From: a virus
Lineage: Duplodnaviria > Caudoviricetes
Virus record (IMG/VR): IMGVR_UViG_3300017651_000184
Location: 1-41,011 of that record
Length of the DNA stretch: 41,011 bases
Strand: one strand, 5' to 3'
The notes under the pieces were generated by a model, which worked only from the letters and a program-made list of their open reading frames with translations, was not told the DNA's origin and did not search any database. Made by a program: the position numbers and the translations under genes. Positions 1 to 24,978 of the stretch are shown here, piece by piece (position 1 is the stretch's first letter; every line of letters begins with the position of its first letter).

Positions 1-1443
1 ATGCAAGCGCAGTCCAAGGCGGGGAGACTAACGGAGCTGGTTCTAAGGCTCGTTGATACCGTTCGGGGCGTTTGGCCTGGCTATGGCCACGACCGCCTGA
101 CGTCCGACGCCCGACACGCTGTCATGGAAGCATTCGGGGTTACGGCAAAAGCAGACTCCGGTCTAGTGGGTCCGCGGGTCGCCGTCCTCGTTCCAAGGCC
201 TGGCACGACGCACACATTGCTTCGCGTCCGTCCTGGTCTGTCGGTGCACTCGCTGAGGTTGGTTTCAATGCAGGCCGTCGCCGAGGTCGCCCTTGAGGGG
301 GAGGGCGCAACCCTGCCTCCTGGGGTATTCAAGGCGGCCTGCCATGTCTTTGCGCTGGTAGGCGTCTTCAATCGCGCGGACTGGCAAGACGGTGGGGAGC
401 GGTGGGTGTGGAATGTGGCGGAGGTGCTCGAGGAAGTAGATGCTGAATGGGCCTATAGTTGGCTGCCCGAACTTCTTCGTGAGGTAAATGCAGTCCTTCT
501 GCGCCTTCCTGTCGGTGATGGCGACACCCTGGGGCCCAATGAAGTTCCAGCGCTGCCTTACTCGGGGTCGTCTCTAGCCCTTGAGGTCGCGCGCTCATCT
601 TGGGAGGATGGTAAGTACGGACGCGCCGCAGCCTGGTACTTGCGAGCGGAGCGGCTAGCGCGCACGTCGGGAGAAATCGATCACTTGGTACGCGCGAAGC
701 TCGGAGCGGGGTGGGTGCACATCCAGCAAGGTGAGTACGCCCGCGCATGGGATTGCCTTCGGGCCGGAGAGGACCTCGCGAGGAATCATAAGCTTCACAC
801 CCTTGAAGGGGTGGCGTGCAACGACCTGTGCGCCCTCGCAATCTTGCAGAATCGAGCCACGGATGTGCGCGAGTACACCCGACGGGCGCGAGCGGCCTTC
901 GGCAATGGAAATCGACGTCTCGTTCGCCTCTGCCACAACACCGCGTATTTCTGGATGGAAGCTGGCAGGTACTCAAGCGCGCTACCGGTATTCGCAGCAT
1001 TGGCGCGCCTGTGCGCTGTCCATGTTGATGCGGAGTTGTGGCCGTTGGTGCAGGGAGCGCTCGGACGCGCCGCAGCCGGGGTGGGGAACAGGGAGTGGTT
1101 CCTACGGGTGTGGGTGGAATCGCTGGCGGAACTATCCCACGATGGAGCTGGAGGGAGGGCCCCGGACGCTCTGCTAGACCTGGCGGATGGGGCGCTAATG
1201 TTGGGTGAAGTCAGCTTGGCCAGAGGTGCCGCATGTGTCGCTCTAAGACTGGCCGAACTTCGCGATCAACCCCATCTAGTTGTCGCAGCGCACGCTGCGC
1301 TGGAGAGAGCGGAAGCGCCAGGGGGTACTGCCACCCAGGCGCTTAAGTCGAGCTCGGAGGACGAAGATCTATCCGCTGAGCTGGTAGAGGCGTTGGGGAC
1401 ATTGGACGGGCGAGCAGGGAGGCTCCCCCTGCTCGCCAGCTAG
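1..1443 (+). CDS. TPR-repeat protein with N-terminal degenerate ImmA/IrrE-like domain (putative peptide receptor/regulator)
   Basis: Residues ~190-440 show TPR-like helical repeats (GKYGRAAAWYLRAERLA; LGAGWVHIQQGEYARAWDCL; HNTAYFWMEAGRYSSALPVF). The N-terminal segment aligns by eye to the ImmA/IrrE pattern but lacks HExxH. The start is at the window edge. Confidence 0.7.
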   Translation: MQAQSKAGRLTELVLRLVDTVRGVWPGYGHDRLTSDARHAVMEAFGVTAKADSGLVGPRVAVLVPRPGTTHTLLRVRPGLSVHSLRLVSMQAVAEVALEGEGATLPPGVFKAACHVFALVGVFNRADWQDGGERWVWNVAEVLEEVDAEWAYSWLPELLREVNAVLLRLPVGDGDTLGPNEVPALPYSGSSLALEVARSSWEDGKYGRAAAWYLRAERLARTSGEIDHLVRAKLGAGWVHIQQGEYARAWDCLRAGEDLARNHKLHTLEGVACNDLCALAILQNRATDVREYTRRARAAFGNGNRRLVRLCHNTAYFWMEAGRYSSALPVFAALARLCAVHVDAELWPLVQGALGRAAAGVGNREWFLRVWVESLAELSHDGAGGRAPDALLDLADGALMLGEVSLARGAACVALRLAELRDQPHLVVAAHAALERAEAPGGTATQALKSSSEDEDLSAELVEALGTLDGRAGRLPLLAS

Positions 1444-1458
1444 TCGAACGTGGAGGGC

Positions 1459-1686
1459 TTAACCCCCTCCGCTGACAACCCCAGTTCCATCCCTGCAGGC
1501 GTCGCAGGCGCTGTCCCCTGGAGCCGACGCGCTCTGGGTATCCCAACTGCTGTCCTTTCTGGTGCTGATGGAGTCGGTCGAGAGCTGCCGTGCCCCTGGG
1601 TGCACGGGGTTGGTGTCGGCGCAGGCGCCGACGACACAGGTGACAGCGAGAGCGGAGAGCGCGAGGAGGGTCCGCAGGCTCTTCAT
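1459..1686 (-). CDS. small lipoprotein-type pro-peptide 1 (75 aa)
   Basis: GGAG RBS; signal peptide with lipobox MKSLRTLLALSALAVTCVVGA-C; low-complexity linker; Gly-rich C-terminus GTGVVSGGG; paralogous to 1782-1964. Confidence 0.75.
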   Translation of the reverse strand: MKSLRTLLALSALAVTCVVGACADTNPVHPGARQLSTDSISTRKDSSWDTQSASAPGDSACDACRDGTGVVSGGG

Positions 1687-1781
1687 GTGGGGCTCCGGAA
1701 GTAGTGAGGATGGTGAGGGTGACGCGCTCGCGGCGGATCTCGCAGTGAGCCTACGCGAGCGCGTTCCGGCGTTACGTCAGC

Positions 1782-1964
1782 TCAGCAGTCCCCGCCGGAT
1801 CCGACAGTGCCACCGTTGTCCCCGCACCCAGTGGTGTCCGAAGGGATTACGCCCTCCGTCAGGGTCGGCGCCACCGGACGAGACGGCTCCGAATTCGCGC
1901 AGGCGCCGACGACGCAGATGATAGCGAGAGCGGAGAGCGCTAGGAGGGGTCGCAGGTTCTTCAT
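1782..1964 (-). CDS. small lipoprotein-type pro-peptide 2 (60 aa)
   Basis: GGAG RBS; ATG at 1964; MKNLRPLLALSALAIICVVGA-C nearly identical to the peptide 1 leader at DNA and protein level; C-terminus CGDNGGTVGSGGDC. Confidence 0.75.
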   Translation of the reverse strand: MKNLRPLLALSALAIICVVGACANSEPSRPVAPTLTEGVIPSDTTGCGDNGGTVGSGGDC

Positions 1965-2043
1965 GTGGGGTCTCCAGAAGTGAGTAGGTAGGATGCGGTG
2001 CGTACCGCCGCGACAACATAGAATCTGAGGCCCGGCAACGACA

Positions 2044-2061
2044 CAGATTCGTGTCAATCTG
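2044..2061. promoter_or_regulatory. operator-like inverted repeat upstream of the peptide genes
   Basis: CAGATT-N6-AATCTG overlapping a minus-strand TTGACA; an extra AATCTG half-site at 2022-2027. Confidence 0.3.
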
Positions 2062-2227
2062 CGCCACCCTGTCCGTATGGGAGCGGACAGTCCTTGTTTA
2101 GTTTCTCGGAGAGCTGCCCGAGACTAGTGGACGTACGCCTCGTCGCGGCGGGGTGACCATAGGCAGCGGCTCGTAGTGCGTTCGGGATCTATTCGGTGTG
2201 GGCGGGGTACCGTTAACTTAACGACAG

Positions 2228-3157
2228 ATGCCAAAGATCGGGCTATCCACGCATACGATTAGGGTTCGACAGAGGTACAAGCGCGGCGACTCGTTCGAGT
2301 TCCTCGGGTCCTTCGGCGAAAGGCATTCCCTTTATGAGGTGGCGCACGAGTTGCTCACCTTGCTCGCCGCAGGCCACACTCACAACGAGCAGCAGCAGAA
2401 CCTTCTCCACATCCCTCGTCTTGAGTCAGACGGGGAGTCGATATGGGGGCTCATCGAGGCCGGAGAGCACGGCTTTGGCTCTCGACTCGTGAACGTGAAG
2501 ACGAAGAAGGATTCATATAAGCGCTCCCCGGATGATGCGGAGATGGTTCCGCACTACTTCCTCCTTAACCTTCCGGCGGACACGAATAAGGGGCTGCTGA
2601 TCCTGCAGCGGTTTGGCTCTCGAGGCGTGCAGGTCCAGTTCTCTAGGGCGCTTCAGGGGGCCGTTACAGAGACTGCTCCGCGGTATATTCTCGACATCAA
2701 TCCTCATGTGCCGCACGAAGTTATGAAGTACCTATTGGAGGGGCGCCTGAAGGGGCTTACCTTCACGCGGTATGGCCTGCCGGAAGAAATCGCGGATGCT
2801 GTCGGGCTTGGGGGGAAGGTTGAGGAGCAGGTTAAAGTTCGCACGATTATCGACGCGCCGAGGAACCGATTTCTCCCTCGGCAGAAGTGGATTCGAGATC
2901 TGTTGGAGAACAAGCGGAGCTTCTACGAGGTTCGAAACGAACTCGGCTTCGAGGCAGAGAGCATCTCCGTCACGGTCGATTACTCTGGTAGCCGGCGGAC
3001 TGTGGACTTCACGAATCCCGAGAGGATAACGCCTCACATCGATGTCTCTGACAGGGTGGTCACTGGACCTAACGGCCATCCAGAGTTCGACAGCATCCAT
3101 GACTACTCGAAGGACCTTCTTCGGAACCTAGCAAAAGAAATCGGCAGGCAGAGATAA
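2228..3157 (+). CDS. hypothetical soluble protein, gene 1 of a putative two-gene defence operon
   Basis: 309 aa ORF, visibly lower GC than the phage genes; conserved-looking motifs (GLIEAGEHG, YFLLNLP, LILQRFG); TAATG overlap with the next gene. Confidence 0.7.
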   Translation: MPKIGLSTHTIRVRQRYKRGDSFEFLGSFGERHSLYEVAHELLTLLAAGHTHNEQQQNLLHIPRLESDGESIWGLIEAGEHGFGSRLVNVKTKKDSYKRSPDDAEMVPHYFLLNLPADTNKGLLILQRFGSRGVQVQFSRALQGAVTETAPRYILDINPHVPHEVMKYLLEGRLKGLTFTRYGLPEEIADAVGLGGKVEEQVKVRTIIDAPRNRFLPRQKWIRDLLENKRSFYEVRNELGFEAESISVTVDYSGSRRTVDFTNPERITPHIDVSDRVVTGPNGHPEFDSIHDYSKDLLRNLAKEIGRQR

Positions 3158-3681
3158 TGCTCTCCAAAATCAACGTCTTAGATATCGTGAGGGATCACTT
3201 CCTCACGCTGAGAAAATACCAGTCTGATCGCTGGAGTGCTGAGGATTTCATCCTCTTCGTCGGCGTCCCACTCGCGGTCGCGGTCGCCATGCTTTACTTC
3301 GGCCTGGTCGTGAGCAAGGCAGCTGTGGACGTGCTCTTTACCGGTCTTTCGATCTTCGCTGGCCTGCTCTTCAACCTGTTGGTGATGGCGCACGGTATCA
3401 TTCGCAGCACCGTAGACGCCCCTCGCTATGAGGACGAAAAGCGGTTGCTACGAGAGCTGTATTCGAACATCTCGTATTCGATCCTAATCGCAATCGTGAT
3501 GCTGGGCGTGCTATTGATTCGCTACGTGACAGCGGAGCCGCGGGTGCTTTATGCGATTTCTTTTGCGACGTATTTCCTGATCGGGAACTTCCTACTGACT
3601 CTACTGATGATCCTGAAGCGAATTCACGTTGTGCTCCGTCAGGAGTTCGAGCCGGATCTCACCGGTCGAACTCTCAGATAG
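3157..3681 (+). CDS. 4-TM membrane protein, gene 2 of a putative defence operon
   Basis: Four hydrophobic helices; translationally coupled to 2228-3157. Confidence 0.75.
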   Translation: MLSKINVLDIVRDHFLTLRKYQSDRWSAEDFILFVGVPLAVAVAMLYFGLVVSKAAVDVLFTGLSIFAGLLFNLLVMAHGIIRSTVDAPRYEDEKRLLRELYSNISYSILIAIVMLGVLLIRYVTAEPRVLYAISFATYFLIGNFLLTLLMILKRIHVVLRQEFEPDLTGRTLR

Positions 3682-3804
3682 GAGAGCCATCCGCGCCTAT
3701 GACCTGGGGCGCGAGGCGAAGGCCCCCTCGCGTCCTCCCCAGCGCTCCCGCGCGCCATCCCGTCGGTTAGTAGAGCAGCCGTCCCACCATCGACCAACCG
3801 GCTC

Positions 3805-4380
3805 ATGCCCGCCTGCGCCCGTTGCGGTAACGCATACCCTGACGACTCGGCCCGCTGTCCGAACTGCAACTACAGCCCATCGCCACAGGCCCTGCAGGCT
3901 CCGGCGAGCCCGGCGGCACCCCCCAGCGGGAGGTACGTGGGGGCTGAGGCCGGATTCTGGTGGTCGCTCCTCCTCAAGGTGTTCGGCTGGTTGTCGCTCG
4001 TTCTCGGCCTGGTGGGCGGGATTGCGTGGTTCGCCGAGTTCGGCGTGATCGAGACACCCGGCTATCTCTACAGCACGGTCCAGGAAACAAACCCGTTGGG
4101 TGTCGCGTTCGCGTTCGGGATCGCGCTCCAGGGCATCGTCATCTGCGTCGTCTTCAACGCCCTCGCCGTCGTGATCGAGCACCTGATCGCTCTCCGTCAC
4201 GGCCAGGTCGTGGTCCGTCCGCGGGTTGCTATCGCGACGCCACTACGCGGTGATGGAGTGCCGGCCTCCTCGATCGTCGGGCACTGCGCGGAGTGCGGGA
4301 TCCCGCTTACCTCACGTGCCGCCCAGCGCCTCTCGGGGCACCTCTGGTGCGAGGAGCACTTCAACCAGCGGGTCGGATAG
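3805..4380 (+). CDS. zinc-ribbon membrane protein
   Basis: N-terminal CxxC-x10-CxxC, two TM helices, C-terminal CxxC...CxxH. Confidence 0.65.
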   Translation: MPACARCGNAYPDDSARCPNCNYSPSPQALQAPASPAAPPSGRYVGAEAGFWWSLLLKVFGWLSLVLGLVGGIAWFAEFGVIETPGYLYSTVQETNPLGVAFAFGIALQGIVICVVFNALAVVIEHLIALRHGQVVVRPRVAIATPLRGDGVPASSIVGHCAECGIPLTSRAAQRLSGHLWCEEHFNQRVG

Positions 4381-4520
4381 CACCTCGCCTGTCCCGCCGA
4401 CACCTGACCGCCCCCACCATGCGACGAATCCACTCCGTGCCCGCCCTCCAGTTCCTGCAGCTCGTCGGCTCCGTCCCGCCCTGCAACGTCGGGCGCGGCT
4501 GCGCCTGCCAGGGATAGGCT

Positions 4521-5489
4521 ATGGCTCTCCACCCCTGCCGCGAGTGCGGCAAGCAGGTTAGCACCGAGGCGGCGACCTGCCCTCAGTGCGGCGTGCCCGA
4601 GCCCACCCGAGACTATACGCCCCCGCCGCCGCCCGTCGCCCCCGCGGAAGAGATACGCCCGGCCGCCAGGCCGGACCGGGGCGCTGGCGAAGGCTCGGAG
4701 AAGTCTGGCAGCGGGATGGGGCGGCTCATCCCTGCCGGGATCGTCCTTGCGTTCGTCTTGTTCGCCGTCGTGATGATCTCCGCCCACTTGTCGGAGAGAT
4801 CCGCCGGCACCGTCTTCGGGGCCGCGTCTATGAACACGGAAGAGCGGTCTCGCCGGTTCGACAGCCTTCGTGCTCTGGAGATCCTGGCCCAGCCCGGCGC
4901 GGTGCCCGACTCGACCGTTCAGGAGCTTGAGCGCATCATCCACGGTCGCGCGATGGACATCCAGCACGACAGCCTCCATCGCCGTGCGGTGTCGATGGCT
5001 CTGGACTCGGCATCGGCCGCTCTCGAGGAGAAGGACAACGGCGTCGGCAACTACATCCGGGCCGAGCGGTTCCTGTCCACGCTCTACATGGTTCAGCCGC
5101 TGACTGAGCAGCAGGTGAGTCGGCGCGATGCGCTGCGGACGGCGGCGAATGCCGAGAGGGACCGAGGCGAGAAGGCCCAGCGGCAAGCAGACAGTGACCG
5201 GCAGATCGCTTCGATTCGCGACACCTCGATCTGCAAGGTGTCCGAAGCCCGCGCCCGCGCCATTCTGGACCGGATTCCGGGCTCCGCGATCGAGGTTCAG
5301 CGAGCCGCGGCATGCGAGCGCGTCCGGATCGGCATGACTCCCGACGAGGTTCGTGCGGCGTGGGGCAGGCCCCGTGACATCAACCGCAGCACCTACAGCT
5401 TCGGGGTGCACGAGCAGTGGGTGTACGGGGAGTGGGGGAGCAGCTATGTGTACTTCGAGAACGGTGTCGTGACCGCTACCCAGACCTGA
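4521..5489 (+). CDS. zinc-ribbon/TM protein with C-terminal BamE/SmpA-like domain
   Basis: MALHPCRECGKQVSTEAATCPQCG; one TM helix; C-terminal IGMTPDEVRAAWGRP...EQWVY...YVYFENGVV. Confidence 0.7.
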   Translation: MALHPCRECGKQVSTEAATCPQCGVPEPTRDYTPPPPPVAPAEEIRPAARPDRGAGEGSEKSGSGMGRLIPAGIVLAFVLFAVVMISAHLSERSAGTVFGAASMNTEERSRRFDSLRALEILAQPGAVPDSTVQELERIIHGRAMDIQHDSLHRRAVSMALDSASAALEEKDNGVGNYIRAERFLSTLYMVQPLTEQQVSRRDALRTAANAERDRGEKAQRQADSDRQIASIRDTSICKVSEARARAILDRIPGSAIEVQRAAACERVRIGMTPDEVRAAWGRPRDINRSTYSFGVHEQWVYGEWGSSYVYFENGVVTATQT

Positions 5490-5539
5490 GCCTCTTCGTT
5501 GTGGCCTTTCACTTGAGGCGGAGTGACCGGACGCTGCTG

Positions 5540-5791
5540 ATGCCCCTCCTCTCGCTCCTCCGCACCCCCACCTCCGAGCCCGGCCGGAGGTACAGCTACC
5601 ACCGGGCGATCCTGCTCGCCGCCGGCGCGGTCGTGCTCTACCTGATGCGGCCGGCCGTGCCGAGCCCCGAGGTGGTGGAGACGCACCGGTGGGTCGCCAC
5701 GGCCGTGCTGGGGATCGCGGTCGTGGGGCTGCTGGTGGCGGGGGCGGAGTGGGTGGTGCGCGGCAGGCGCAGGCGGAGGCCGGGCCGATGA
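5540..5791 (+). CDS. small 2-TM membrane protein
   Basis: Two hydrophobic segments and a basic C-tail; ATG at 5540 chosen as start. Confidence 0.5.
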   Translation: MPLLSLLRTPTSEPGRRYSYHRAILLAAGAVVLYLMRPAVPSPEVVETHRWVATAVLGIAVVGLLVAGAEWVVRGRRRRRPGR

Positions 5792-5802
5792 GTGGCTGCG
5801 GA

Positions 5803-5820
5803 TTATTCCCTGGAGCATAA
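5803..5820. promoter_or_regulatory. 18-bp palindromic site, degenerate copy
   Basis: Reverse complement TTATGCTCCAGGGAATAA matches TTATGCTCCAGAGCATAA at 16/18 positions. Confidence 0.5.
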
Positions 5821-5864
5821 AAGCGTCCCCGCGACGGGCCGAACACACGACGGCAACCTCATCG

Positions 5865-6410
5865 ATGCGATCCACATTCCGCCGCACAGCCGCGGCCGCC
5901 CTCCTCTTCCTGGTCGCGTGTGACGACCCCACGCGGCCGCGGTCTCAGACCGAGGGAACCTTCGAAGCGCAGATCACCGGGGACATCAATGTCTCGATGC
6001 GAGGATTCTCCGTGGATGGGGGGATCATAGGGTTCTCTCACATCGTCATGGGACGTGACCCGATGGGCTGGAAGCAACGCCCGGATACGCTGATCTACAT
6101 CACGTCCCGAACCTTCCTGCAGCGGGGTACGCACGAAATCCGGCCCTTCGAAGCATGGGACAACGTGCCCCTCGAGCAGCCGGTGGTCATCGCCTACGCC
6201 GTCGTTTCCGCACCGGGCGGGCGGCCCCGGTACATCTCCCTCGACGGTACCGTCACGATCACGAAGGTGACGCGTCGCGGGCGCGAGGGCACCTTCTCGT
6301 TCCGAGCCCCCCTTCAGTACTCGTCCGACCCCTCCAGGAGCATCACCGTTGAGGGTCGCTTCGAGACCCTGTACGAAGGGTTCTGGCCGCCGCGCGGATG
6401 GGAGATGTGA
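5865..6410 (+). CDS. lipoprotein, beta-rich, unknown function
   Basis: Signal peptide with lipobox MRSTFRRTAAAALLFLVA-C. Confidence 0.65.
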   Translation: MRSTFRRTAAAALLFLVACDDPTRPRSQTEGTFEAQITGDINVSMRGFSVDGGIIGFSHIVMGRDPMGWKQRPDTLIYITSRTFLQRGTHEIRPFEAWDNVPLEQPVVIAYAVVSAPGGRPRYISLDGTVTITKVTRRGREGTFSFRAPLQYSSDPSRSITVEGRFETLYEGFWPPRGWEM

Positions 6411-6415
6411 GCGGG

Positions 6416-6664
6416 ATGTCGTCGAGCGTCCGCCGTGCAGGTGGGCCTGCCCTGGCACTCGTCCTCGCCGCCTGCATGGCGCCCGTCGACGACGCCGACC
6501 TGCTGGTCTCCGCGCGGCTGCAGACCCAGGAGGTGTGCGTGGCCTACGACGACCTCCGCGGCCGGGACGAGGCGCTGCATGCGGCGCTCTTGGAGGACCC
6601 GCTCCACCAACGGGCGATGGAGCTGTGCGATGGGGTGGGCGAGCAAGGCAGCGTGGGGCGGTAG
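6416..6664 (+). CDS. small lipoprotein
   Basis: LALVLAA-C lipobox; start uncertain. Confidence 0.45.
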   Translation: MSSSVRRAGGPALALVLAACMAPVDDADLLVSARLQTQEVCVAYDDLRGRDEALHAALLEDPLHQRAMELCDGVGEQGSVGR

Positions 6665-6703
6665 AGAGCGGGTTGAAACCCTGAACTGAAGCCGAACGAG
6701 CAC

Positions 6704-7756
6704 ATGGCTGATGAGACGAAGCAGGTGACGAAGGGGCGGCGCCACACGACCACCGTCGAGGCTGGTCCGGAGCACCGGAACGGCGGGGGAGATGATCGGA
6801 AGCCCTGCTTCGTGATGATGCCGATCAGCGATCCGGAGGGGTACGCGAAGGGGCACTTCACGCGGGTGTACGAGGATATTTTCGCTCCGGCGATTCGCCA
6901 GGCGGGCTTCCGGCCGGTGCGGGCGGATGAGACGGTCGCGAGCAACTTGATTCACCTCGATATCCTCCGCCGCCTCCGAGAAGCGCCGATCGCGATTTGC
7001 GACTTAAGCAACCGGAACGGGAACGTCCTTTACGAGTTGGGATTTCGGCAAGCCTTCGATATGCCGACCGTGTTGGTGAAGGAAGTTGGGACGCCTGATC
7101 TCTTCGATGTCGCACCGCTGCGCGCGTACTCGTACCGACCGGCCCGGTTGTACCACGAGGTGTTGGATGATCAAGCCAAGATCCGAGACATGATTCTCGC
7201 GACGGTCGAGGAGGCTGAGGGGCAGTCCGGCGTGAACTCGCTGGTGCGCCTACTGGAACTGGAGCGGCCCGCGACGCCTGCGCAAGTGCGCGAAGCGGAG
7301 TCGGATCCTGCGCTTCAACTCGTACGTGCGGAACTCGCCGAGATGCGTACGGAGATGCGCAGACTCGCAATACGCTCTGCCGCGGCCCGAGAAAGTGTTG
7401 ATTCAGGTGGCCGGAGGCCGACGAGCGGTCCCCATGCCTTGCGTAACGACTTTCTCATAACGATCTCCAAGGTTCCCAGTGAACTCCTCGATGCGGCAAT
7501 AAGGGGTATCCAGAACCGGGCCCCTTTTCAGTCAATCGTCGTGCTGGGATCCACCACGCGTATTACACAGCTGCTCCTTCATACGGTGAGTCCGATGTCC
7601 ATCCTGGATGCTCGCCAATCATGGGCTGCCGCGAGTGCAGACTATGGGATCGAAACTATGGAGGTTCTATCTAACGACGCTCCTGCGGCGGAATCATCAA
7701 CCAACCTCCTTAGTCGCCTGCGCCAAGGCGAATTCCCTGTACCTCCGGCGGGATGA
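6704..7756 (+). CDS. nucleoside 2-deoxyribosyltransferase-like (TIR-like fold) domain protein
   Basis: CFVMMP...RADE...ICDLSNRNGNVLYELG motif set, followed by a coiled coil and an unknown C-terminal domain. Confidence 0.8.
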   Translation: MADETKQVTKGRRHTTTVEAGPEHRNGGGDDRKPCFVMMPISDPEGYAKGHFTRVYEDIFAPAIRQAGFRPVRADETVASNLIHLDILRRLREAPIAICDLSNRNGNVLYELGFRQAFDMPTVLVKEVGTPDLFDVAPLRAYSYRPARLYHEVLDDQAKIRDMILATVEEAEGQSGVNSLVRLLELERPATPAQVREAESDPALQLVRAELAEMRTEMRRLAIRSAAARESVDSGGRRPTSGPHALRNDFLITISKVPSELLDAAIRGIQNRAPFQSIVVLGSTTRITQLLLHTVSPMSILDARQSWAAASADYGIETMEVLSNDAPAAESSTNLLSRLRQGEFPVPPAG

Positions 7757-8181
7757 AATAGACGGATTGCGGCCTCCGCCACCCCGTCAACACCAAGGCG
7801 CACGGAGCCGGTATTCTCCCAATCATAACCTCGCGCGGTAGACGCAACTGCGATGCGATAGAGTTTCCCCGGCCGGTCGAGAAGGCCGACGCAACCCCCG
7901 CTGCTCTCACGAGCGACACTACGGCGGGCACGGATGAGGCCGGACCGGGGACCCATCAGAGAGGGAGGATCGTGAGTACGTACGACCTGGAGCACCGGGA
8001 GCCCGACTGCGCCGAGCACGCGGAGTATTCGGCGGGCGCGACCCCGAGGGCTACACCTGCACGCCGATCCGTGTGTTCGCCTGACGGACTCCTCCGCCTC
8101 GCTCAATCCCCAGCCACTCCGACACCTCCAGTCCCGACTCTCACCTTTCCGACAAGTTTCACTCTCTGTCCTGGAGCCACA

Positions 8182-10137
8182 ATGCGAAACGCACGCTGTT
8201 GGCCCCTTGCTAGTCGCCTCATCGTAGCGAGTGTCATCCTACTCACTTCAGGATGCGACCTGTTAGGTCTAGATGATAGTGGGAACCGCCGCTCACGTGG
8301 CATCACCCTATCCAAGAGTAATGCAGTTCCCGGTGAAGTTGTGATGGTACGAAACCTCTCGGCGGAAGCTGGCGGCACGGCGGTGGAGGTTGGGGCGACA
8401 ACTGTGGAACTTCTCGGGAGTGCGGATATTGGCCGGGCTGGCTTCGTTGTTCCCGAGCTGGCTCCAGCTGAATACAACGTGCGCGTTAGAACAGAGGCGG
8501 GTAAAACGCTGAATGCGGGTCGTCTCCAGGTTCGGCCTCCGACGCTTCTAGGGGGAAAGCCGGAGGTTGCGGTCGACTCGATGGAGGTATTGAGCACTCG
8601 GCTCCGGAGTAGCGTTGATCGACTCTTGAAGTCTGCATCTCTCGAAGCGGTCCCACAGTTCGAGAAGGCGAATACTCTCCCCCCTCTGGCAGGAGAAATG
8701 CTCGCGTCTCTTGAGCGAGGGCTCCAGCGTCTCACACCGGAAGAGCAGCGTCGGTTGGCACTAATGATCTCAGCAAACCCAGAGATCCTAAATGTACTTG
8801 AGATGGTCGGAAGGATCACCAGTGTGGAGCCGCCGGTGTTGCAAGCGGCATCGCATGCGGCGCCCGCGCCAACCTTGGTGCTTCGAGATACGAGTAGCTC
8901 CTTATCATTGGGAGTTGACCGAATTTGGCCTGAGCCTATACCTGCCGTACCGCCAGGGGCAAAGCTGGCGACCAAGACCTTCCCCCCCATCGGGGCTCCG
9001 ACTCTCGCGCAATCGATGACTGGTCAGGCAATCTCAGCAACGGTCGCCGCGCAAGCCTGCCGTTCTATGAAAGAGGGTTTAGAAGCGCTTGAGGAGGTCG
9101 CTATGTTCGTAAACATCGCATCTATCGCGGCGACAGCTGCTGCAGTTGGGACGGTAGGGGGCGCGACGCCCGGTGCCGTTGTGATTGCATACATGGCAGT
9201 AGCCACAAATCTGACTTTGATTTACCTGAATACACGGCCATTCCTTCTGGACAACAGCTCGCTCGAAATTCGAGTTTCCCCGGTGCGAGTTAAGGCTGGT
9301 TCGTCAAATGGAGTCATGACAGCTCGTGTAAGGCGAGTGAGTCCAGTGAGCGGTTTAGGCGCCGTTGCAGGAGTGACTCTGGCGATGCCTGGTGTGAATG
9401 GCGCCCTGTCAAATAGTGCCGGAGCCGCCATCCAGATGTTCTCGACCGCAAGTCGGGATTTGCTAGATTGGCTAGCGCACCCTGGCGTGCGAAGCGCGTT
9501 GGCCGATTTGGGGGCTGGTTCAGCCTCCAGCCGACTTGTCAGTGAAATTGCGAAGGTGGATGAAGCGCTTCAGTTGTCAACGCCCTTCGCGGAAGAGACC
9601 CCGCTCACTTTCCAAGGGATCGAGATCCAACCGCAACCGGAGTGGTCGGTTGGCGGTCCATCCAACACGCTAAGCCGCCGAATAATTGTTGTCGACATGC
9701 CAACGGATACAACGATCGAATTGAGTGCCAGGATCCGGTCGCCAGATTCGGACTGCAGCGCCGCCATCTCACGACATAGCTTAGCTCAGGGAATCAACGG
9801 ATTCCGAATCGACGGTTCGTTCCCGCCGGTCATCATGGCACTCGTATTTCCAACGGTTATCATCAATGTGCCCGGCGTAACGACGACTGGCAGAGTGGAG
9901 TTCGTGGATCGTGAAGGTGATGTGATGCAGCTCGAGGCTACGGTCGCCGGCGTGAATACGGTTGTCTATGACTTGTCCGTCGACGGTGTGAAAAGCGGGT
10001 CGGTTCCCATAAGTGTGGTGTGCCCCGCTGGCGATCACACTCACTGCAGGCCTGGACCGTATCTCTTGCGTGCAGTGCTCATCGACAGGCACGGCAATCG
10101 GAGTAAGCCTGCCGAGCAATTCTTCTTTGCGGAGTAA
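8182..10137 (+). CDS. large lipoprotein with Ig/IPT-like domains and a central hydrophobic helical hairpin
   Basis: GGAG RBS before ATG 8182; lipobox LLTSG-C; IPT-like segment (AVPGEVVMV...FVVPELAPAEYNVRV); visibly lower GC. Confidence 0.65.
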   Translation: MRNARCWPLASRLIVASVILLTSGCDLLGLDDSGNRRSRGITLSKSNAVPGEVVMVRNLSAEAGGTAVEVGATTVELLGSADIGRAGFVVPELAPAEYNVRVRTEAGKTLNAGRLQVRPPTLLGGKPEVAVDSMEVLSTRLRSSVDRLLKSASLEAVPQFEKANTLPPLAGEMLASLERGLQRLTPEEQRRLALMISANPEILNVLEMVGRITSVEPPVLQAASHAAPAPTLVLRDTSSSLSLGVDRIWPEPIPAVPPGAKLATKTFPPIGAPTLAQSMTGQAISATVAAQACRSMKEGLEALEEVAMFVNIASIAATAAAVGTVGGATPGAVVIAYMAVATNLTLIYLNTRPFLLDNSSLEIRVSPVRVKAGSSNGVMTARVRRVSPVSGLGAVAGVTLAMPGVNGALSNSAGAAIQMFSTASRDLLDWLAHPGVRSALADLGAGSASSRLVSEIAKVDEALQLSTPFAEETPLTFQGIEIQPQPEWSVGGPSNTLSRRIIVVDMPTDTTIELSARIRSPDSDCSAAISRHSLAQGINGFRIDGSFPPVIMALVFPTVIINVPGVTTTGRVEFVDREGDVMQLEATVAGVNTVVYDLSVDGVKSGSVPISVVCPAGDHTHCRPGPYLLRAVLIDRHGNRSKPAEQFFFAE

Positions 10138-10344
10138 TGGGTGGAGTCCGCTGGGTGGAGGCAGGGGGCCAAGGCCATGGCGGCGTCCCCCTCACAAGGG
10201 GTCGAGAATTCGGCCGTGCCGCCGGCACGCCCAGGAGAGCCTGAACACCAACGGGCGGCCCCTCCCTGGAGCCGCCCGCGCTGTATCCGCATCCCGCCTC
10301 ATCGTACCCCACCTCTCCGCCTCACCGCCCTGGGAGGGGCCAGT

Positions 10345-10362
10345 TTATGCTCCAGAGCATAA
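10345..10362. promoter_or_regulatory. 18-bp palindromic site TTATGCTCCAGAGCATAA
   Basis: Perfect 8-bp arms; identical to 35419-35436; immediately after the last phage gene. Confidence 0.6.
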
Positions 10363-10365
10363 TCC

Positions 10366-10758
10366 TCAGGCCGGATCCCTCCACGCCCGCCACCCGAACA
10401 GCCGCACCGCCAGGTAGGCGAGTCCCCGCCGCCACCGGGGTACCCCCTCCGCAGCCATCACCACCCGAAACAGCCGGTCCGCCTCGGCCCGCGTCCACGT
10501 GCGGGCCGGCAGCGCCACGCCGGGCTCCGGGCACCCGCCGCAGCGGTACAGGAAGTCGTGCGCGAGTGGCGCGGCCAGCGACAGCTCCACGGGCCCGATC
10601 AGCCACCAGCACACCCGGGGAATGCTCGCCGCGTCGAACTCGAAGCCCCGGGGGATCCGGAGCCGGAATCGCCCGTCGCGGACCACGTAGCCCCGCTCCA
10701 GGCGCCAGGGCCCGGAGGGCCCGCGGTACGTCACCACGGGAGACGGCGCCGGGCTCAC
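10366..10758 (-). CDS. DUF1353 domain protein
   Basis: IPRGFEFDAASIPR...AHDFLY...RAEADRLF...AVRLFG signature; GTG overlaps the upstream stop. Confidence 0.8.
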   Translation of the reverse strand: MSPAPSPVVTYRGPSGPWRLERGYVVRDGRFRLRIPRGFEFDAASIPRVCWWLIGPVELSLAAPLAHDFLYRCGGCPEPGVALPARTWTRAEADRLFRVVMAAEGVPRWRRGLAYLAVRLFGWRAWRDPA

Positions 10759-11162
10759 GAGGGGTCCCTCCGCCGCGACCGGGGCACCGGCACCACCGTG
10801 CCGGCCCCCTGCGCCCGCACCCATTCGCAGACGGCCTCCAGCGTCGCGGTCTGAACCGCCTGCTCGCGCTGGATCTGCTCCATGGCCTGCGTCATCGCCC
10901 GGAGCGGCGGGATCACGTGGTCGGTGATGCGCTCGGCCTGGGCAAGCTGCGCGGCGCGGAGCGTCTCCACCTCGGCGCGGGCGGCGTCGGCGGTCTCGCG
11001 CGCCTGGATGTAGAGCGTCTCCAGGGCGGAGAGCTTCGCGCCCACGCCGTCGACGTCGCGGCGGGAGGCGAAGCTGCGCTGGAGCCGAAGCTCGAGCGCG
11101 GCGATCAGCACTGCGCCGGCGAGGGCGACGGCGCTCCAGGGTACCTGCTGCCACCAGGTCAT
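10755..11162 (-). CDS. N-terminal TM + coiled-coil protein (holin-like, lysis position)
   Basis: One TM helix (WSAVALAGAVLIAAL) then an amphipathic coiled coil; end of the tail operon. Confidence 0.5.
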   Translation of the reverse strand: MTWWQQVPWSAVALAGAVLIAALELRLQRSFASRRDVDGVGAKLSALETLYIQARETADAARAEVETLRAAQLAQAERITDHVIPPLRAMTQAMEQIQREQAVQTATLEAVCEWVRAQGAGTVVPVPRSRRRDPS

Positions 11163-11169
11163 TCGTGCG

Positions 11170-11742
11170 CTACGGGGTAGGGGGCTCGCCGGGCCGCTCG
11201 CCGGCCCAGGCGTGGGGGAGGTGGGTGTCGGAGACAACGACGTCGCCCGGGAGGACGTCGATCATCGGCACCCGCAGCACCATCGCCTCGCCGACGGCGG
11301 CGCGGAGCTGGGCCTGGGCGAGCACCAGTGCCGCGGCCACGGGGTATTCAGGGGCGCTGCTTCGGAGCCCGGTAGCGGGGCAGTAAGGCGGCAGCAGTGC
11401 GTCGACGGTCTCGCAGCACGCGCCGCGGAGGTCGCCTCCTTGTGCGCAGCGAAGTACGTCGGCGGCGTAGACTCTGGGCTTGACGCTGGCTGGGAGCAGC
11501 CGGTACCTGGCGGCGGCCGTCGCGACCGATCCGTCCGCCGGGGTGACCAGCTCGCCCACGCCGGTCGGGTCCAGGGCGCCGACGTCGACGAGGACCTCGC
11601 CGCCGGGCAGTACCGCCGCCACCCGGACGCCGCGCTGCAGGAGGTCCGCCGGCGTGGACGGCCGCTCCGGATCGTCCCCGATCTCGGGCTCCACCGCCCA
11701 TGCCGCCCACGCCGCTGCGCTGAACAGCTCGAAGTGCGGCAT
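11170..11742 (-). CDS. hypothetical phage protein
   Basis: TGATG-coupled ORF (MPHFELFSAAAW...). Confidence 0.55.
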   Translation of the reverse strand: MPHFELFSAAAWAAWAVEPEIGDDPERPSTPADLLQRGVRVAAVLPGGEVLVDVGALDPTGVGELVTPADGSVATAAARYRLLPASVKPRVYAADVLRCAQGGDLRGACCETVDALLPPYCPATGLRSSAPEYPVAAALVLAQAQLRAAVGEAMVLRVPMIDVLPGDVVVSDTHLPHAWAGERPGEPPTP

Positions 11743-13022
11743 CAGACCTCCCCGTGCAGGCGGCCGTCCGGGCGGAGCCGGTCCGCCGTGTAGGCCAACT
11801 CCTCGAAGATGCTGGCGCCGTTGGTGGGAGACGACGAGAGGTCGCCAAGTCGGACGGCCACCATGCGCAGCAGCCCCATCGAGCAGGGCGAGGATCCCGT
11901 CGCGGATCCGAAATGCAGCTCGGGGGCGCTCCACGCCGGGGCGACGCCGCCGGCCGGCGCCGCGGTGCTACCCTGAACGAGAGTCCCCCCACCGACCCGC
12001 ACGGCGCTGCGGCGTGCGCCCGTGTCGTACAGGACTCCGGCATACTGCACGCGGTCGCCCGGCTGAATCGTGACGCCGACCGAGTGCGAGTTCCCCACCC
12101 CCGCGGCATCGTTGTACGTGGTCGTGAGGAACAAGCCGTTGTGCTGGTAGACGTACAGCCGCCCCGGGGCGGTCGACGGCGATGTCGCACCGAACTGCAT
12201 GACGACCGAGGAGCCAAGGCCCGCCCCGTTCGGCTGGCGCGCGACGTAGTCGAGATACCACGCAAGCGGTTGCTTGCGCGCGAGCCCGGTGAAGCTGAGC
12301 GTGTCCGCGAGGCGCGCCCCCGTGGTCCGGATCCGGGAGGACTCGGCGGGCGCGGCCTCGACCTGGAGCGTCGTGAGGCGTAGGCCACCCGGGAGCTGGT
12401 CCGGATACCGAACGAAACCGGCCTCCTGGCGCGCGACGGAGCTGGCCGTCGTGACCGTGGCGCTGAAGCGGTACACGTTGGTCCCGCGGAGCCGCCGGAT
12501 CCGGACCGCTCCCGCCAGCACCTCGCCGCAGAAGAACGTGAAGTGGCTCGCGGCCTGCCCGGCCGACGCGCTCCGGACCACCGGGACTGACCCGTCGTCC
12601 AGCTCGGCGTCCACCGAGATCGTGTAGGTGGTGGAGCCGGCGAGGGGCACGACCTGATAGGCGTACTCCGTCGACGCCGAACGGGGGAGTCGAATCCCTC
12701 CCGACAGGCCCCCGGAGGTCCAACCCCCATCCGTCACACCCCCGGAGCGGAAGGTATACGAGGCGGCGCCGCCCTCCGGCGCGGGGACGAGGTTAGTCGC
12801 CGCACGCTCCACCACCGCGGCCTGCCGCAGCTCGCCGTCGACGTCCACCCACTCGAATCGGGGGGTCCTGGCGGGGACGGTCCGGACCACGCCCAGCATG
12901 TCGACGGCGGTCCCGATGGTGGAGCGTGCGAACGCGACGTCCCGGAGGCCCACCACGGGGCGGATCCCCTCCCCGAGGGCGGGCGATACCGCGGCCAGGA
13001 TGGAGCTGGAGGTGATCGCCAC
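11742..13022 (-). CDS. virion fibre/spike protein with carbohydrate-binding-like beta domains
   Basis: FARSTIGT...PRFEW...VERAATNLV and QVEAAPAESSRIRT...RLAD motifs typical of phage fibre/head-spike proteins; LamG-like C-terminus. Confidence 0.65.
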   Translation of the reverse strand: MAITSSSILAAVSPALGEGIRPVVGLRDVAFARSTIGTAVDMLGVVRTVPARTPRFEWVDVDGELRQAAVVERAATNLVPAPEGGAASYTFRSGGVTDGGWTSGGLSGGIRLPRSASTEYAYQVVPLAGSTTYTISVDAELDDGSVPVVRSASAGQAASHFTFFCGEVLAGAVRIRRLRGTNVYRFSATVTTASSVARQEAGFVRYPDQLPGGLRLTTLQVEAAPAESSRIRTTGARLADTLSFTGLARKQPLAWYLDYVARQPNGAGLGSSVVMQFGATSPSTAPGRLYVYQHNGLFLTTTYNDAAGVGNSHSVGVTIQPGDRVQYAGVLYDTGARRSAVRVGGGTLVQGSTAAPAGGVAPAWSAPELHFGSATGSSPCSMGLLRMVAVRLGDLSSSPTNGASIFEELAYTADRLRPDGRLHGEV

Positions 13023-13025
13023 GGC

Positions 13026-13430
13026 CTACCCCTCCGCCTGGGCCTGCGGGTATCCCACCAGGACGGCCGGCTCCGGGTCAATCCCCAGCACCGCCAACAC
13101 CTCGGGGCGGTCCTGGTACACCTCCCGGAGCTGCGCCTGGTGGAGCGCGCGAAACGGTGCCACCTCCCGCTCTCGGGCCCCGTCGTGATGCGCAGCCCAC
13201 GCGGCAAGTCCCGCATCCCGCGCGGCGGCGGCCGTCAGTGCGTCATCGTCCGCGAGCGCCAGCGTCCAGGCGTCCGCCATCGGGAGGGCGTAGACCTCCA
13301 CGACCCCCGGGGGGGCGGCGAGCATCGCCTCGCGGAGGGCCATCTCAGCTTCGTACTCAGCCACGTTCGCGCGGGCGATGAGTTCCTGTGGCGACTCCGC
13401 CGGTGCGGGCGGGATCTCAGTCGGGATCAT
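13026..13430 (-). CDS. hypothetical phage protein
   Basis: Acidic helical ORF in the tail operon. Confidence 0.55.
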   Translation of the reverse strand: MIPTEIPPAPAESPQELIARANVAEYEAEMALREAMLAAPPGVVEVYALPMADAWTLALADDDALTAAAARDAGLAAWAAHHDGAREREVAPFRALHQAQLREVYQDRPEVLAVLGIDPEPAVLVGYPQAQAEG

Positions 13431-13830
13431 GCATCTGCTCCTGCAGGGCGTAGGCGGCGGCCGTCTCCGCTGCGATCAGCGCGGCGACCATCGGTGCGGG
13501 GGCGCCGAGGTACTGAGCTGCGGCGGATCGCAGCAGGATCCCGGCGCGGTCCAGGTCCCCGAGGCACCCGCCGCACAGGTAGTCGTGCGGCGCCTCGGGA
13601 ATCATCGACACGTCCACCAGCTCCATAGCCAGGCGCTCCCGGCAGCAGCGGGCGCAGTAGATGGGCTCAGGCTCCGGGTTCCACGGCTCCGCGAGCGGGC
13701 CTTCATCGTTGCCTGCCAGGGCCACGAAGGTGGCCGGCGCTACCATCGGGCCGAGGTCATCCGCCCACGCTTCCATGTCCAGGAGCGCATCGGCCATCGT
13801 GCGCGGGCGCCAGGGGGTAGATTCGCTCAT
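13417..13830 (-). CDS. hypothetical phage protein with two CxxC motifs
   Basis: CARC and CGGC; ATGA overlap with the tail-tip gene. Confidence 0.55.
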   Translation of the reverse strand: MSESTPWRPRTMADALLDMEAWADDLGPMVAPATFVALAGNDEGPLAEPWNPEPEPIYCARCCRERLAMELVDVSMIPEAPHDYLCGGCLGDLDRAGILLRSAAAQYLGAPAPMVAALIAAETAAAYALQEQMHDPD

Positions 13831-16800
13831 GTACCAGTTTTCGCCTCAAAAGGGACAGGGTTCAGCCCCATCGAGCGCCAGATAGGCGCGGCGGTCGTCC
13901 CCCACTTGACCGCGTTGCGGATAAGCGAGCCGCCGTTTCCGGTTGTCTCGACTACGACCACCCGGAACGACGAGCCGGGGCCCACGCCGTCGAGCAGTAT
14001 CTCGATCTTGTCGCTGAACTGCAGGCCCCCCGAGGGGTTGTAGTTGACGTACGTGCGCGTCGCGCGAAGCGCTTCGCCAAAACCGTTGTTGACGAAGACG
14101 TTGAGCCGGAGGGTCGACGGTGTGTAGTCGCCGCCTAGTCCTCCCACGGGGCGTGCGAATTGGAGGGTCCCGCTCACCTCCACGGTGTACCGATCATCCC
14201 ACGCCTCTTCCGCGGTGCTCTTCACCGCGTACTCGCCGCTGAAGGTGGCCGTCTGCGTGGCGACGCTATCCACGGCGGTGCGGAGCCGCAGGCGCGCCGT
14301 GAAACCGTTCGTGTCCTGGTTGATGGCCTCGCACACCTGGCCGTATGCGTTGCCATCGAGGTCCGGGTGGTGGGACAGGCCCCCCGCCAGGAACGCGATC
14401 AGGTAGGTCCCCGGGAACGCCGGCTCGAACGTTACGCCCTGGCCGTCCACCACCATCCCAGCCCGGAGGCCGCGAGAGATCGTCAACGCTTCGATGGTGG
14501 ACTGCGTCGCGATCTGGAACTCGCCCGCGAAGGTCGTGTCGGCCAACTTCCCCCCGCGACTCACCTTGTCGAACGTACCGCCACCCGGCACCGCTGCGCC
14601 GCCGTCGATCCCGGTCCGCAGGAACTTGTTGGAGGGGTTGATCGCGTCGAGCGCCAGGTTGGCCCCGTCGCGCGCAGCCGGGCCCCCGGCGAGGCTGGTG
14701 AGCGGGTCGCCGGTCCGCATCAGATAGCGGTTCGGATCTCCGCTTACCTGCTGGTCCGCTAACACGTAGCCGTCCGGCCCGGCGAGCTTCAGCTCGGGGC
14801 GCATCTGGCCGATGGGGATGGGGAGCTTGACCCGGAAGTCGGGTCCGAGGCCGTTGTCGCCCCGCAGCCCGCCGCGCTCGATCTGCTCGAACGAGTAGCC
14901 GGTCGGACCGTGCAGCGCCGGCATGATCTGCCGTATCGTCGGGTTTAGGAGGTCCGCAGTCCCCGTGGCGTCGCGGACGACCGACGAGGTCTGCGGGCTG
15001 TACGGCGAGCCCGCCGCGGCGCCGGAGTAGAGATCCACCTCGGCCGCGGGCTTGCCCTTCGAACCGCCCGTCCCGAGCAGGCCGTCCAGGATGGGCGGCA
15101 TGGCGTCGGTGACGATGTCCGACGAGAAGGCCCCCACGCGCACCTGGGCGTAGACCCTGCGCTCGTACGCCTTGTGCCCGGTGACGACGACGGTCGCCGG
15201 CAGGGGCGAGGCCGTCCAGGTGTCCGGCGGGGCCTGCTCCGGCTCGATGCTCAGCCGGGACCACGTCCGCCACTCCATCGTCCCCACCGCGTCGCCGGGA
15301 TCTCCCTCCAACCAGAAGTGCCCGGCCGACCCCGGCGTGCTCGCGAGGTACAGGTTGGCGACCGGCCGCCGCGGCACGGGAAGGGTGGGGTCCCGGGGCA
15401 TGACGTCGACGGCGTCCACCGCCCGGAGTTTGCCCGCGATCTCTGCGACGACCTGGAACCGCGCCGGGGGGCTCCCGGCGGTGGGGCGCTGGATCGTCCA
15501 GGTGACAGACGGGGTTGTCGCCGGGTTCGCAGTCGGCATCATCGACTGCGAACCGACCGGGTTGAGCGCGCCCAAGCCGGGCGCGCTCGGCGTTACGAGT
15601 ACCGGCCCGAAGGGGTACGGATCAGTCACGAACACCTGCGCGACGTACTGAGTCGCCGTGGCCGTGACGTCGATGTGGATGCCGAGCGGGACCGTGTCGC
15701 GGCCCTGCTCTGGGATCTCTGCGAAGACGGGGTCCGAGACCCATCCGCTCTTTTCGATGACGAACTCCGCCTGCCCCGAACCCCCAAGCGCACCGCCACG
15801 GCTGAACTTCCAGGTCGCGGGGCTCCCCGAGGCGACCCCCTGGGCCGGGCCCTCGATCCGCGCGCCGCTCCCCCGCACCGCCACCAGGCGCACGGTGGCG
15901 TCCGAGGGCTCGGCGGTGACCTGGACGGCCACCACCGTCGCGGTCGTGTCCCCGGCGACGATCCTCGCCGTGCCGCGCGTGAGCTTCGGGATCTCCGGAT
16001 CCTGCGCCGGAACGTCGACGGCGTCGCTGTCCTTGACGCGGCCGTTTGCGCGGGCGGTGAACGTGACCCGCCCGGGAGGTGAGCCGAAGGCCGGGCGTTC
16101 GATGGAGAACGCGACGGCGCTGGTGGTGTCGAGATCGGCAGTCGGCCAGAGCTTCCGCTCCAGCGCTGGACCGATCGGTCCCACGGCCACGCCGGCCGCC
16201 GCGACGGTCACGGAGTCGGGGCCCTGGGGGTACGGGTCCGCCACGTAGACGAGCACGTTGACGTGCGTGGCCGTGGTAGAGGACACGCGGGCGAGCGTCG
16301 ACAGGTACACGGTGTCCCGCCCCTCCTCCGGGATCTCCACCATGTCGACGTCGGGGGTGGCGCCGGTGAGGGTCGCGCGAAACTCCACCTCGCCCGGCCC
16401 CCCGAGCGCTGCGCCGCGCCGGAACCGCCAGGTGCGCCCGCTGGGCACGGCGACGCCCTCCGCATCCCCAGCGATCCGCGAGGCGCTCCCCCGCACCTCC
16501 ACCAGCGCCACCGTCGCCCCGGGGGGCGACGCGGTGACCTCGACCTCGATCTCCGTCGCGCTGGTGGAAATCACCCGCGCCACACACGTCGCGAAGACCA
16601 GCGGCGCCGGGTCCTGCGCCGGCACGTCGATGGCGTCGACCCCGTCCACCCGGCCCGGTGTAGTCGCGACGAATGACACGCGCCGGATACCGCTTCCGGC
16701 CGGGCCACGAGTGATGGTGAAGTCGGCGGTGCCGGCCTGCGCCCGCGACGCGCCGGGCGTGAGGGTCCGCGAGGCAGGCCCCACGTTGGCGCCGTACGGG

Positions 16801-18458: not shown

Positions 18459-18796
18459 CAGGTCTCTCGCAACGTGAAGTCGAACACGCTGAGCGCTCCA
18501 CCCTTCCGGGTGAGGAGCTGGACGGGGCGCATCTCCACGTGGCACTGCCGCGCCACCCCGCCCGCCAGGTCGCCGCTCGCGCTGACGACGGCCTTTCGGA
18601 GCTCCACCTCCAGAGCCGCGGCGGCCGCGGGGAGCATCGCCACGGTCTTCGCGGTGAGCGTCCACTTCGCCGCGCGGCGCGTGGAGAGCATTCGGCCGGA
18701 GATCGCCACGGTCCGGTGGGCCCCGTCGTCCACGTCGCGGGTCGCCTGGTCTCGCGCGATCGGCACCGTCACCCCGTTGACGGCCAGGGCGGGCAT
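18458..18796 (-). CDS. distal tail protein-like
   Basis: MPALAVNGVTVP...FDFTLRET; coupled to the tape-measure stop. Confidence 0.6.
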   Translation of the reverse strand: MPALAVNGVTVPIARDQATRDVDDGAHRTVAISGRMLSTRRAAKWTLTAKTVAMLPAAAAALEVELRKAVVSASGDLAGGVARQCHVEMRPVQLLTRKGGALSVFDFTLRET

Positions 18797-22272: not shown

Positions 22273-22335
22273 GTTGTCCTCGGGTTGAGACCTCCCCCCC
22301 CGCGCGTGCGGGGGCGGTTGGTGCACCAGCACCGG

Positions 22336-23063: not shown

Positions 23064-23081
23064 GGGGCGGTCGGCCGCCTC

Positions 23082-23534: not shown

Positions 23535-23535
23535 C

Positions 23536-24212: not shown

Positions 24213-24214
24213 CG

Positions 24215-24927: not shown

Positions 24928-24978
24928 CGGTCCTCCGTAGCGGGGTGGCTAAACCGCCCCGCGGCTCGAGTGGAGGTC

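Follow-up and report, generated by a model that had tools for sequence, protein, structure and literature searches.

Cytoplasmic receptors built from tetratricopeptide repeats (TPRs) that respond to small peptides, and the control of phage lysis and lysogeny by such peptides, are described from Bacillota in the excerpts cited here (PMC10075063, PMC9765709, PMC12700828). The excerpted signature of the RRNPP group joins a propeptide of 10-100 aa to a TPR-containing receptor of 250-500 aa (PMC10075063), and phylogenetic work on RRNPPA takes Gram-positive hosts as its frame (PMC12700828). In the Rco-Rap-Phr system of pLS20, the TPR protein is an anti-repressor that is inhibited by the peptide, as excerpted from PMC3814332. 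Here we analyzed a 41,011-nt phage record, IMGVR_UViG_3300017651_000184 (the window), which opens with a cassette of one TPR receptor gene and two small lipoprotein genes. Our best reading is that the cassette works in the manner of Rap/Phr, as an anti-repressor controlled by peptides, and that it was recruited from a signaling family of its hosts, in a diderm lineage.

An initial annotation of the window had described a 480-aa TPR open reading frame (ORF) facing two minus-strand mini-genes, and the ORF coordinates bear this out, with a 15-nt gap from the TPR stop to the first peptide stop. The shared ribosome-binding site (RBS) and signal/lipobox segment (VVGA-C) that it noted correspond to an 85-nt duplication of 89% identity. 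Of the two related Gly-rich tails, GTGVVSGGG stands as described and the second is refined to NGGTVGSGG followed by DC, both nine-mers being preceded by D. Both precursors have K or R near the N-terminus, a hydrophobic stretch and a lipobox Cys at position 22, giving a Sec-type export signal by motif filter (basic N-region, hydrophobic stretch, lipobox), and their linkers diverge, again as annotated.

Receptors and facing precursors in the host family

Homologues of the receptor are TPR proteins of Longimicrobiaceae, in 1,073 clusters (50% identity) at an E-value of 1e-30 or better. All 33 genome loci carry Gemmatimonadota titles (23 of 64 parts scanned), so that the Bacillota host of the RRNPP description is not found here, and we infer that the phage host belongs to a Gemmatimonadota lineage. 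Gemmatimonadota are diderm. A phylum-wide sample gave matches in 3 of 151 genomes, all three already in the family set (2 of 150 without the unpublished G026). Five genomes hold 19-47 receptor matches each at E 0.001, weak generic matches included, and five other, held-out Longimicrobiaceae genomes hold 12-21 at E 1e-35.

Linkage was scored on the strong matches from the first five genomes, minus four in G003 (140 non-redundant). Filtering these for a closed C-terminus, E ≤1e-30, a model match reaching position 350 and 500 nt of sequence downstream gave 130 receptors, and removing the window, L001 and the two frames of the frameshifted L033 gave 126. We found a convergent lipobox ORF within 300 nt of 82 of the 126 (median gap 25 nt), against 1 in tandem, 1 upstream on the same strand and 2 divergent (upstream room unfiltered), and the linkage is therefore beyond chance. 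The lipobox was required by the filter, hence its presence in 82 of 82 is by selection. In the held-out genomes 56 of 81 receptors face a convergent lipobox precursor, and the tandem control gave 2. The expectation of the initial annotation that lipobox mini-ORFs consistently adjoin TPR homologues thus holds in both sets.

The family precursors have a median length of 72 aa with the lipobox Cys at 19, and carry a nine-residue core, x-G-x-x-hydrophobic-G-S-G-x. A strict core is present in 73 of the 82 precursors and is C-terminal in 62 (shuffled mature parts give a mean of 0.5 and a maximum of 3); in 30 of 82 it occurs two or more times. Agreement at the variable positions (of 7) is 4.5 within one precursor, 2.2 between precursors and 0.7 in the repeat flanks, and the terminal cores are all distinct (73 of 73). 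Of the 62 terminal cores, 34 follow an R, and internal cores most often follow a D, which suggests cleavage sites. A leader with repeated Gly/Ser-rich cores is also the layout of ribosomally synthesized and post-translationally modified peptide (RiPP) precursors, and several tails contain Cys pairs, so that the small genes might encode RiPP precursors, or else inhibitors of a toxic TPR protein in a toxin-antitoxin pair, neither being a signal. We consider this very improbable: the closest upstream genes of 53 chromosomal cassettes are mutually unrelated, with no recurring modifying enzyme or exporter on that scanned side, 44 of the 126 receptors lack a convergent precursor within 300 nt, an antitoxin that is exported could not reach a toxin in the cytoplasm, and PADLOC has no match for the TPR protein of the window.

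Receptor and core also co-vary. When TPR columns were scanned against core positions by mutual information, column 232 (D275 in the window receptor) and core position 7 came out on top at 0.40, compared with a maximum of 0.22 in 30 permutations. After one mis-registered core (L066) was corrected, the first set contains 44 D/S, 1 D/other, 10 other/S and 18 other/other combinations. With the candidate columns left out of the tree, 6.7 of 10 independent pairs change the same way and 0 the opposite way (median p 0.016), while six control traits gave a median p of 1 in four cases, one of the other two leaning the same way. Because this pair was chosen after the scan, it was tested on the five new genomes, where the same four counts are 30, 0, 4 and 14 (Fisher p 6e-9; 48 of 56 precursors with a strict core) and 7.5 of 9 independent pairs change the same way with 0 opposite (median p 0.016). 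The substitutions look size-matched, with Y or H accompanying G or A, G accompanying N, and S or E accompanying T. Six of the top 8 column pairs lie on TPR positions 2, 5, 6 or 9, across three successive repeats, in a register set by a Pfam TPR_2 match extended by hand; positions 2, 5, 6, 9, 12 and 13 form the ligand-contacting concave face in the excerpt of PMC1261162. The covariation of column 232 with core 7 points to putative direct binding of the core. The initial annotation had proposed testing whether the peptides covary with the TPR homologues, and the column 232 residue does track the core in both genome sets. Altogether, receptor and core very probably form a receptor-ligand pair.

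These data also bear on the possibility that the core acts cell-autonomously, reporting lipoprotein export or envelope damage in its own cell when a clipped or mislocalized precursor reaches the cytoplasm; it would then serve as a trigger under stress or superinfection and not as a signal within a population. A lipid anchor keeps a precursor at the membrane, as is well established. The lipobox is the rule here (in the filter-selected 82 of 82) and a minority feature of RRNPP propeptides in the excerpted survey (211 of 2,734; PMC9765709). Against this stand the 73 distinct cores in 73 precursors and the receptor-specific covariation, which suit address-like signals, and the core repeats, which mirror the Phr duplications excerpted from PMC11343458. 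We regard the cell-autonomous role as quite unlikely.

Family-5 ABC peptide-binding proteins are encoded in 5 of 5 host-family genomes, making import plausible, though this is non-specific. The longer family members contain extra TPRs (one also DUF932) and no telling output domain. The most conserved receptors (L003-L005, L007, L010-L013, L016, L017, L019, L022, L024, L032, L067, L081, L099) lack a nearby precursor and are candidate orphan or eavesdropping receptors. We also observed chromosomal triplets in which a single precursor gene, lying between two same-strand receptor genes, converges on one of them and diverges from the second (L088, L089, L092, L094, L096, L110, L128, L134), possibly two receptors for one signal. 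We found no account of a Longimicrobiaceae TPR-lipopeptide family in the literature covered, most subscription papers and the supplements of PMC10075063 and PMC9765709, which may hold relaxed-mode matches, lying outside that scope.

The phage cassette and its immunity switch

The window encodes a terminase, portal, capsid, tape measure and integrase (Pfam, PHROG); it is a temperate phage from soil, and the cassette lies within its lysogeny control region. The same contig was recovered as L136, which matches window 1-7419 at 100% identity and extends it upstream by 5,739 bases (L136 base 5740 is window base 1). There, an XRE repressor gene (HTH_3, 1.8e-7, plus PHROG repressor families) overlaps the TPR start by 56 nt, and a divergent small gene faces it across two palindromes. 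This gene is cro/xis-like with a weak HTH_17 match (E 0.098) and heads an operon that includes an acyl carrier protein gene together with recombination-like and SbcD-like ones. The palindromes, adjoining 12-nt units GGCTTTCAAGCC and GGCTTTAAAGCC, are the sole matches within 46.7 kb scanned and are likely repressor operators. The repressor gene that overlaps the TPR gene and faces a cro/xis-like gene therefore places the cassette in the phage immunity switch.

The order of cro/xis-like gene, XRE repressor, TPR receptor and convergent lipopeptide gene recurs in 3 of 3 phage records (L136, L135 and L001/L145), and the tie to phage control is therefore stronger than the window alone shows. The divergent gene has weak helix-turn-helix (HTH) or excisionase matches in L136 and L135; that of L001 matched none of the HTH or excisionase models. 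L135 and the window share 45% identity in the repressor, 50% in the receptor and 49% in precursor 1, third codon positions being the most diverged. L001/L145 has XRE, TPR and a convergent lipobox gene with the C-terminus GHIGGGVG, and its divergent side carries Gam-like and HNH genes. No further phage-type locus came out of three viral scans.

The receptor begins at window base 1: the L135 orthologue aligns from residue 1, with 56% identity over 177 N-terminal residues and codon-position identities of 0.68/0.76/0.38, which marks this ATG as the real start and speaks against a start at base 268, suggested by a 391-aa database entry (P0004). Its TPR matches in Pfam are below cut-off (TPR_MalT 2.4e-5), and an AlphaFold model from a 134-row alignment, with a predicted local distance difference test (pLDDT) score >90 across most of residues 200-470, matches TPR superhelices. 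Eukaryotic LGN ranks first (Z 22.1, root-mean-square deviation (rmsd) 3.6, 291 aligned), with NprR and the Rap structures lower, RapH at Z 19.7 (rmsd 8.7, 303 aligned) and RapI at Z 18.9 (rmsd 4.1, 271 aligned). The receptor tree groups the window with L135 in a clade and puts L001 in another place, at weak support (0.69), so recruitment may have been repeated.

All three phage receptors have the family N-terminus replaced by a different domain of about 175 aa, which between the window and L135 is better conserved than the TPR part (56% versus 50% overall). Its profile gave two weak matches in 71 host-family genomes (E 0.004-0.007), none convincing, and a region search for further phage-type N-terminal domains found none (this search also missed P0004). 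No HTH was detected on residues 1-180 in Pfam at E up to 10, and the domain model is of low confidence (pLDDT 51). From its position and its joint conservation with the repressor, this putative output domain likely binds the adjacent XRE repressor.

Lying directly behind the XRE gene, the domain could also be an active ImmA/IrrE-type protease that cuts the repressor under TPR control. The helix-helix-three strands-helix-helix order of the pLDDT 51 model and a weak motif likeness in L001 (8 of 300 shuffles as high) would fit, but the HExxH zinc motif (the PF06114 criterion) is absent from all three N-terminal domains, the window domain is shuffle-like (102 of 300), and a three-sequence profile, a weak test, gave probabilities of 0.5% and 0.2%. 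An ImmA/IrrE identity is likewise unsupported by Pfam, Atlas, PDB sequences and fold searches (best Z 5.2, with the same model, likewise a weak test). A protease of this type is thus the most improbable of the explanations we weighed.

The phage could instead use a true receptor-peptide pair to listen to, or jam, the paralogous signal network of its host, changing host behavior rather than its own switch. Hosts carry many paralogues with similar cores, core 2 of the phage resembles chromosomal cores in L059 and L128, and the cassette also borders a low-GC accessory region. Counting the other way, an XRE repressor precedes or overlaps 3 of 3 phage copies and was found upstream of 0 of 53 scanned chromosomal cassettes, and the N-terminal domain has no convincing host-family counterpart. 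We find this host-directed role unlikely; the cassette probably acts on the switch of its own phage.

The only precursor of L135 is, in linker and tail, the orthologue of precursor 1, and has GGGVVSSGN at the position of core 1. Cys pairs flank or precede the cores of the phage precursors (window 1459-1520 and 1782-1830; L135 11199-11260), and the signal could be shaped or shielded by a disulfide loop. An ORF upstream of the L135 precursor gene (11558-12214, +) has an N-terminal core-like RSGGTLGSGNR before a signal-like segment. A 15-bp inverted repeat spans the TPR stop of L135.

Contigs from RNA libraries of two separate studies match, at ≥99%, portions of the repressor gene, of the TPR gene, of the precursor-2 region and of window 2232-3352; they are of low depth and strandless, and DNA carry-over is possible. 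Neither run has a contig over window 10200-30100 or the early genes, and as the runs were picked for cassette content, and a contig can speak for presence alone, this is not used as evidence.

A proposed mechanism and its setting

We slightly favor a peptide-controlled switch in which the precursor cores bind the TPR groove, stop the receptor from opposing the repressor and keep the phage dormant when lysogens are dense. A lysogen would make repressor, receptor and precursors; the precursors would be lipidated and exported through Sec and signal peptidase II (SPII); a protease would free the nine-residue cores by cutting after R or D; and the cores would re-enter through an oligopeptide permease to bind the TPR groove of a presumably cytoplasmic receptor. 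The N-terminal domain would act on the adjacent XRE repressor, and a bound core would hold the receptor off it, keeping lysogens dormant where they are dense. Which way the effect would go is taken from Rco/Rap/Phr of pLS20, and by this analogy the suggestion that the peptide favors dormancy through anti-repressor inhibition has a little less than an even chance.

Several observations weigh against this switch. The operator-like palindrome is confined to the switch, with no copy at the peptide genes in the 46.7 kb scanned; we found only three phage cassettes; and the N-terminal output domain has no assigned fold. We know of no bench experiment on any member of the family. The covariation was measured on chromosomal copies, and held-out loci may be orthologues of first-set loci, making their independence incomplete. 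Whole-tree Mantel tests are non-significant (p 0.19 and 0.2), nearest-neighbor similarity is raised in flanks as well as cores, the Y266/F5 pair was not replicated (p 0.24), and the acid-228/N-or-H-9 pair passes the Fisher test (p 5e-4) but fails on independent pairs (median p 0.06-0.07). Two groove columns set the clade of the window apart, with W at column 195, against N in most copies, and N at 270, against D in most. Additionally, the D-S rule pairs D275 with core 2 (S at 7), but orthology favors precursor 1 (G at 7), so that either core may be the cognate one.

The covariation yields residue-level predictions: D at TPR position 6 goes with S at core 7, and a bulky or small residue in place of D goes with G, T or N. 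With short cores in a defined register, and three phage cassettes that name a repressor and a promoter, the hypothesis is directly testable.

Table 1. Features of the cassette and the adjoining switch. Positions are those of the window unless given as L136.
Feature	Position	Strand	Remarks
XRE repressor gene	L136 5199-5795; 3′ end at 1..56	+	L136 base 5740 is window base 1
Two adjoining 12-nt palindromes	L136 5197-5232		between cro-like gene and repressor; likely operators
TPR receptor gene, 480 aa	1..1443	+	N-terminal domain of phage type followed by a TPR superhelix; signal peptide absent on inspection
N-terminal domain, ~178 aa	1..534	+	seen solely in phage copies (three); likely output domain
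TPR region	556..1416	+	groove W238, V271, D275, A278, R309, H312 map to core-co-varying columns
11-bp perfect inverted repeat	1409..1437		TPR 3′ end; likely terminates transcription of the convergent genes
Lipoprotein precursor 1, 75 aa	1459..1686	-	lipobox Cys22
Predicted core 1, GTGVVSGGG	1462..1488	-	family register; after R-D
RBS and signal-peptide duplicated segment, copy 1	1619..1702	-
18-bp inverted repeat	1722..1764		in the gap between precursor genes 1 and 2
Lipoprotein precursor 2, 60 aa	1782..1964	-	lipobox Cys22
Predicted core 2, NGGTVGSGG	1791..1817	-	canonical family core; after D, flanked by two Cys, then DC
RBS and signal-peptide duplicated segment, copy 2	1897..1981	-

Downstream of the cassette lies a low-GC pair of genes (2228-3157 and 3157-3681, +) the first for a 309-aa protein (phrog_15676, unknown) and the second, coupled to it, for a membrane protein of 174 aa. 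This unit holds most of the RNA-library contigs seen, has no PADLOC or NCBIfam match, and looks like a defense or exclusion unit expressed in the lysogen. A 350-aa protein (6704-7756, +) matches phrog_3634 (2e-24) and weakly a PADLOC TIR effector (4e-6), making it a possible defense gene. Two more small genes of the accessory region (5865-6410 and 6398-6664, +) have lipobox-like N-termini, and a low-GC 721-aa ORF (7972-10137, +) has no Pfam, PHROG or PADLOC match. The acyl carrier protein gene of the early operon (L136 3598-3870, -; PF00550, 3.6e-14) lies upstream of the recombination and SbcD-like genes. At the end of the record (38741-41011), distant from the repressor, the integrase (phrog_1, 3.5e-18) heads the replication-packaging strand; an HTH-bearing transposase-like ORF closes the record, and the attachment site may split the early operon. 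No tRNA was found in the window.

Comparison with known peptide-controlled systems

The cassette resembles Rco-Rap-Phr of pLS20 in that an XRE repressor of a mobile element stands beside a TPR protein and an exported peptide, and Rap structures are among its fold matches. The ImmR-ImmA-RapI-PhrI system of ICEBs1 is reportedly comparable to that of pLS20. Here, unlike in Rco-Rap-Phr, the element is a phage of a Gemmatimonadota lineage, the precursors carry lipoboxes, the genes are convergent, the cores are Gly-rich and nine residues long, and the N-terminal domain is unrelated. As LGN outscores both RapH and RapI, homology to Rap is at most tentative.

With the arbitrium system of Bacillus phages (AimR-AimP-AimX) the cassette shares a TPR receptor and a small exported peptide in a temperate phage, and a likely role in lysis-lysogeny. 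It differs in the HTH not detected in the receptor, in the separate XRE repressor upstream, with no aimX-like element identified, in a host lineage outside Bacillota, and in that most family members are chromosomal. The initial annotation had likened the layout to Rap/Phr or AimR/AimP; the missing HTH match makes it Rap-like more than AimR-like. Its proposal of an RRNPP-like phage module gains from the repressor adjacency in the phage records, and is qualified by the mainly chromosomal nature of this Longimicrobiaceae family, with tens of paralogues per genome.

The five-point signature excerpted from PMC10075063 is matched by the cassette, with propeptides of 75 and 60 aa, an SPII export signal, a 480-aa TPR receptor and 15-nt adjacency, and the RRNPP models of NCBIfam and Pfam do not match the window receptor. 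The family also recalls the chromosomal Rap-Phr expansions of Bacillus, with many paralogues per genome, orphan receptors and repeated-core propeptides (excerpts of PMC9765709, PMC11343458). It differs from them in that the SPII lipobox is typical here, and the core is repeated in more than a third of the precursors. We do not class the cassette as an RRNPP member, because common descent is not established and the host lineage is not Bacillota, but it appears to work like Rap/Phr.

Tentatively, phages of a diderm soil lineage may have evolved an arbitrium of their own by taking a receptor from a lipopeptide language spread through their hosts, with tens of receptor-peptide pairs in each genome and a legible groove-to-core code, joining it to a new anti-repressor domain, possibly more than once, and wiring it to their repressor, with two signals of which one would address kin and the other maybe host or rival receptors. 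If true, this large and apparently separate Gemmatimonadota family would extend the TPR-peptide design across an outer membrane and suggest lipoprotein anchoring as the means.

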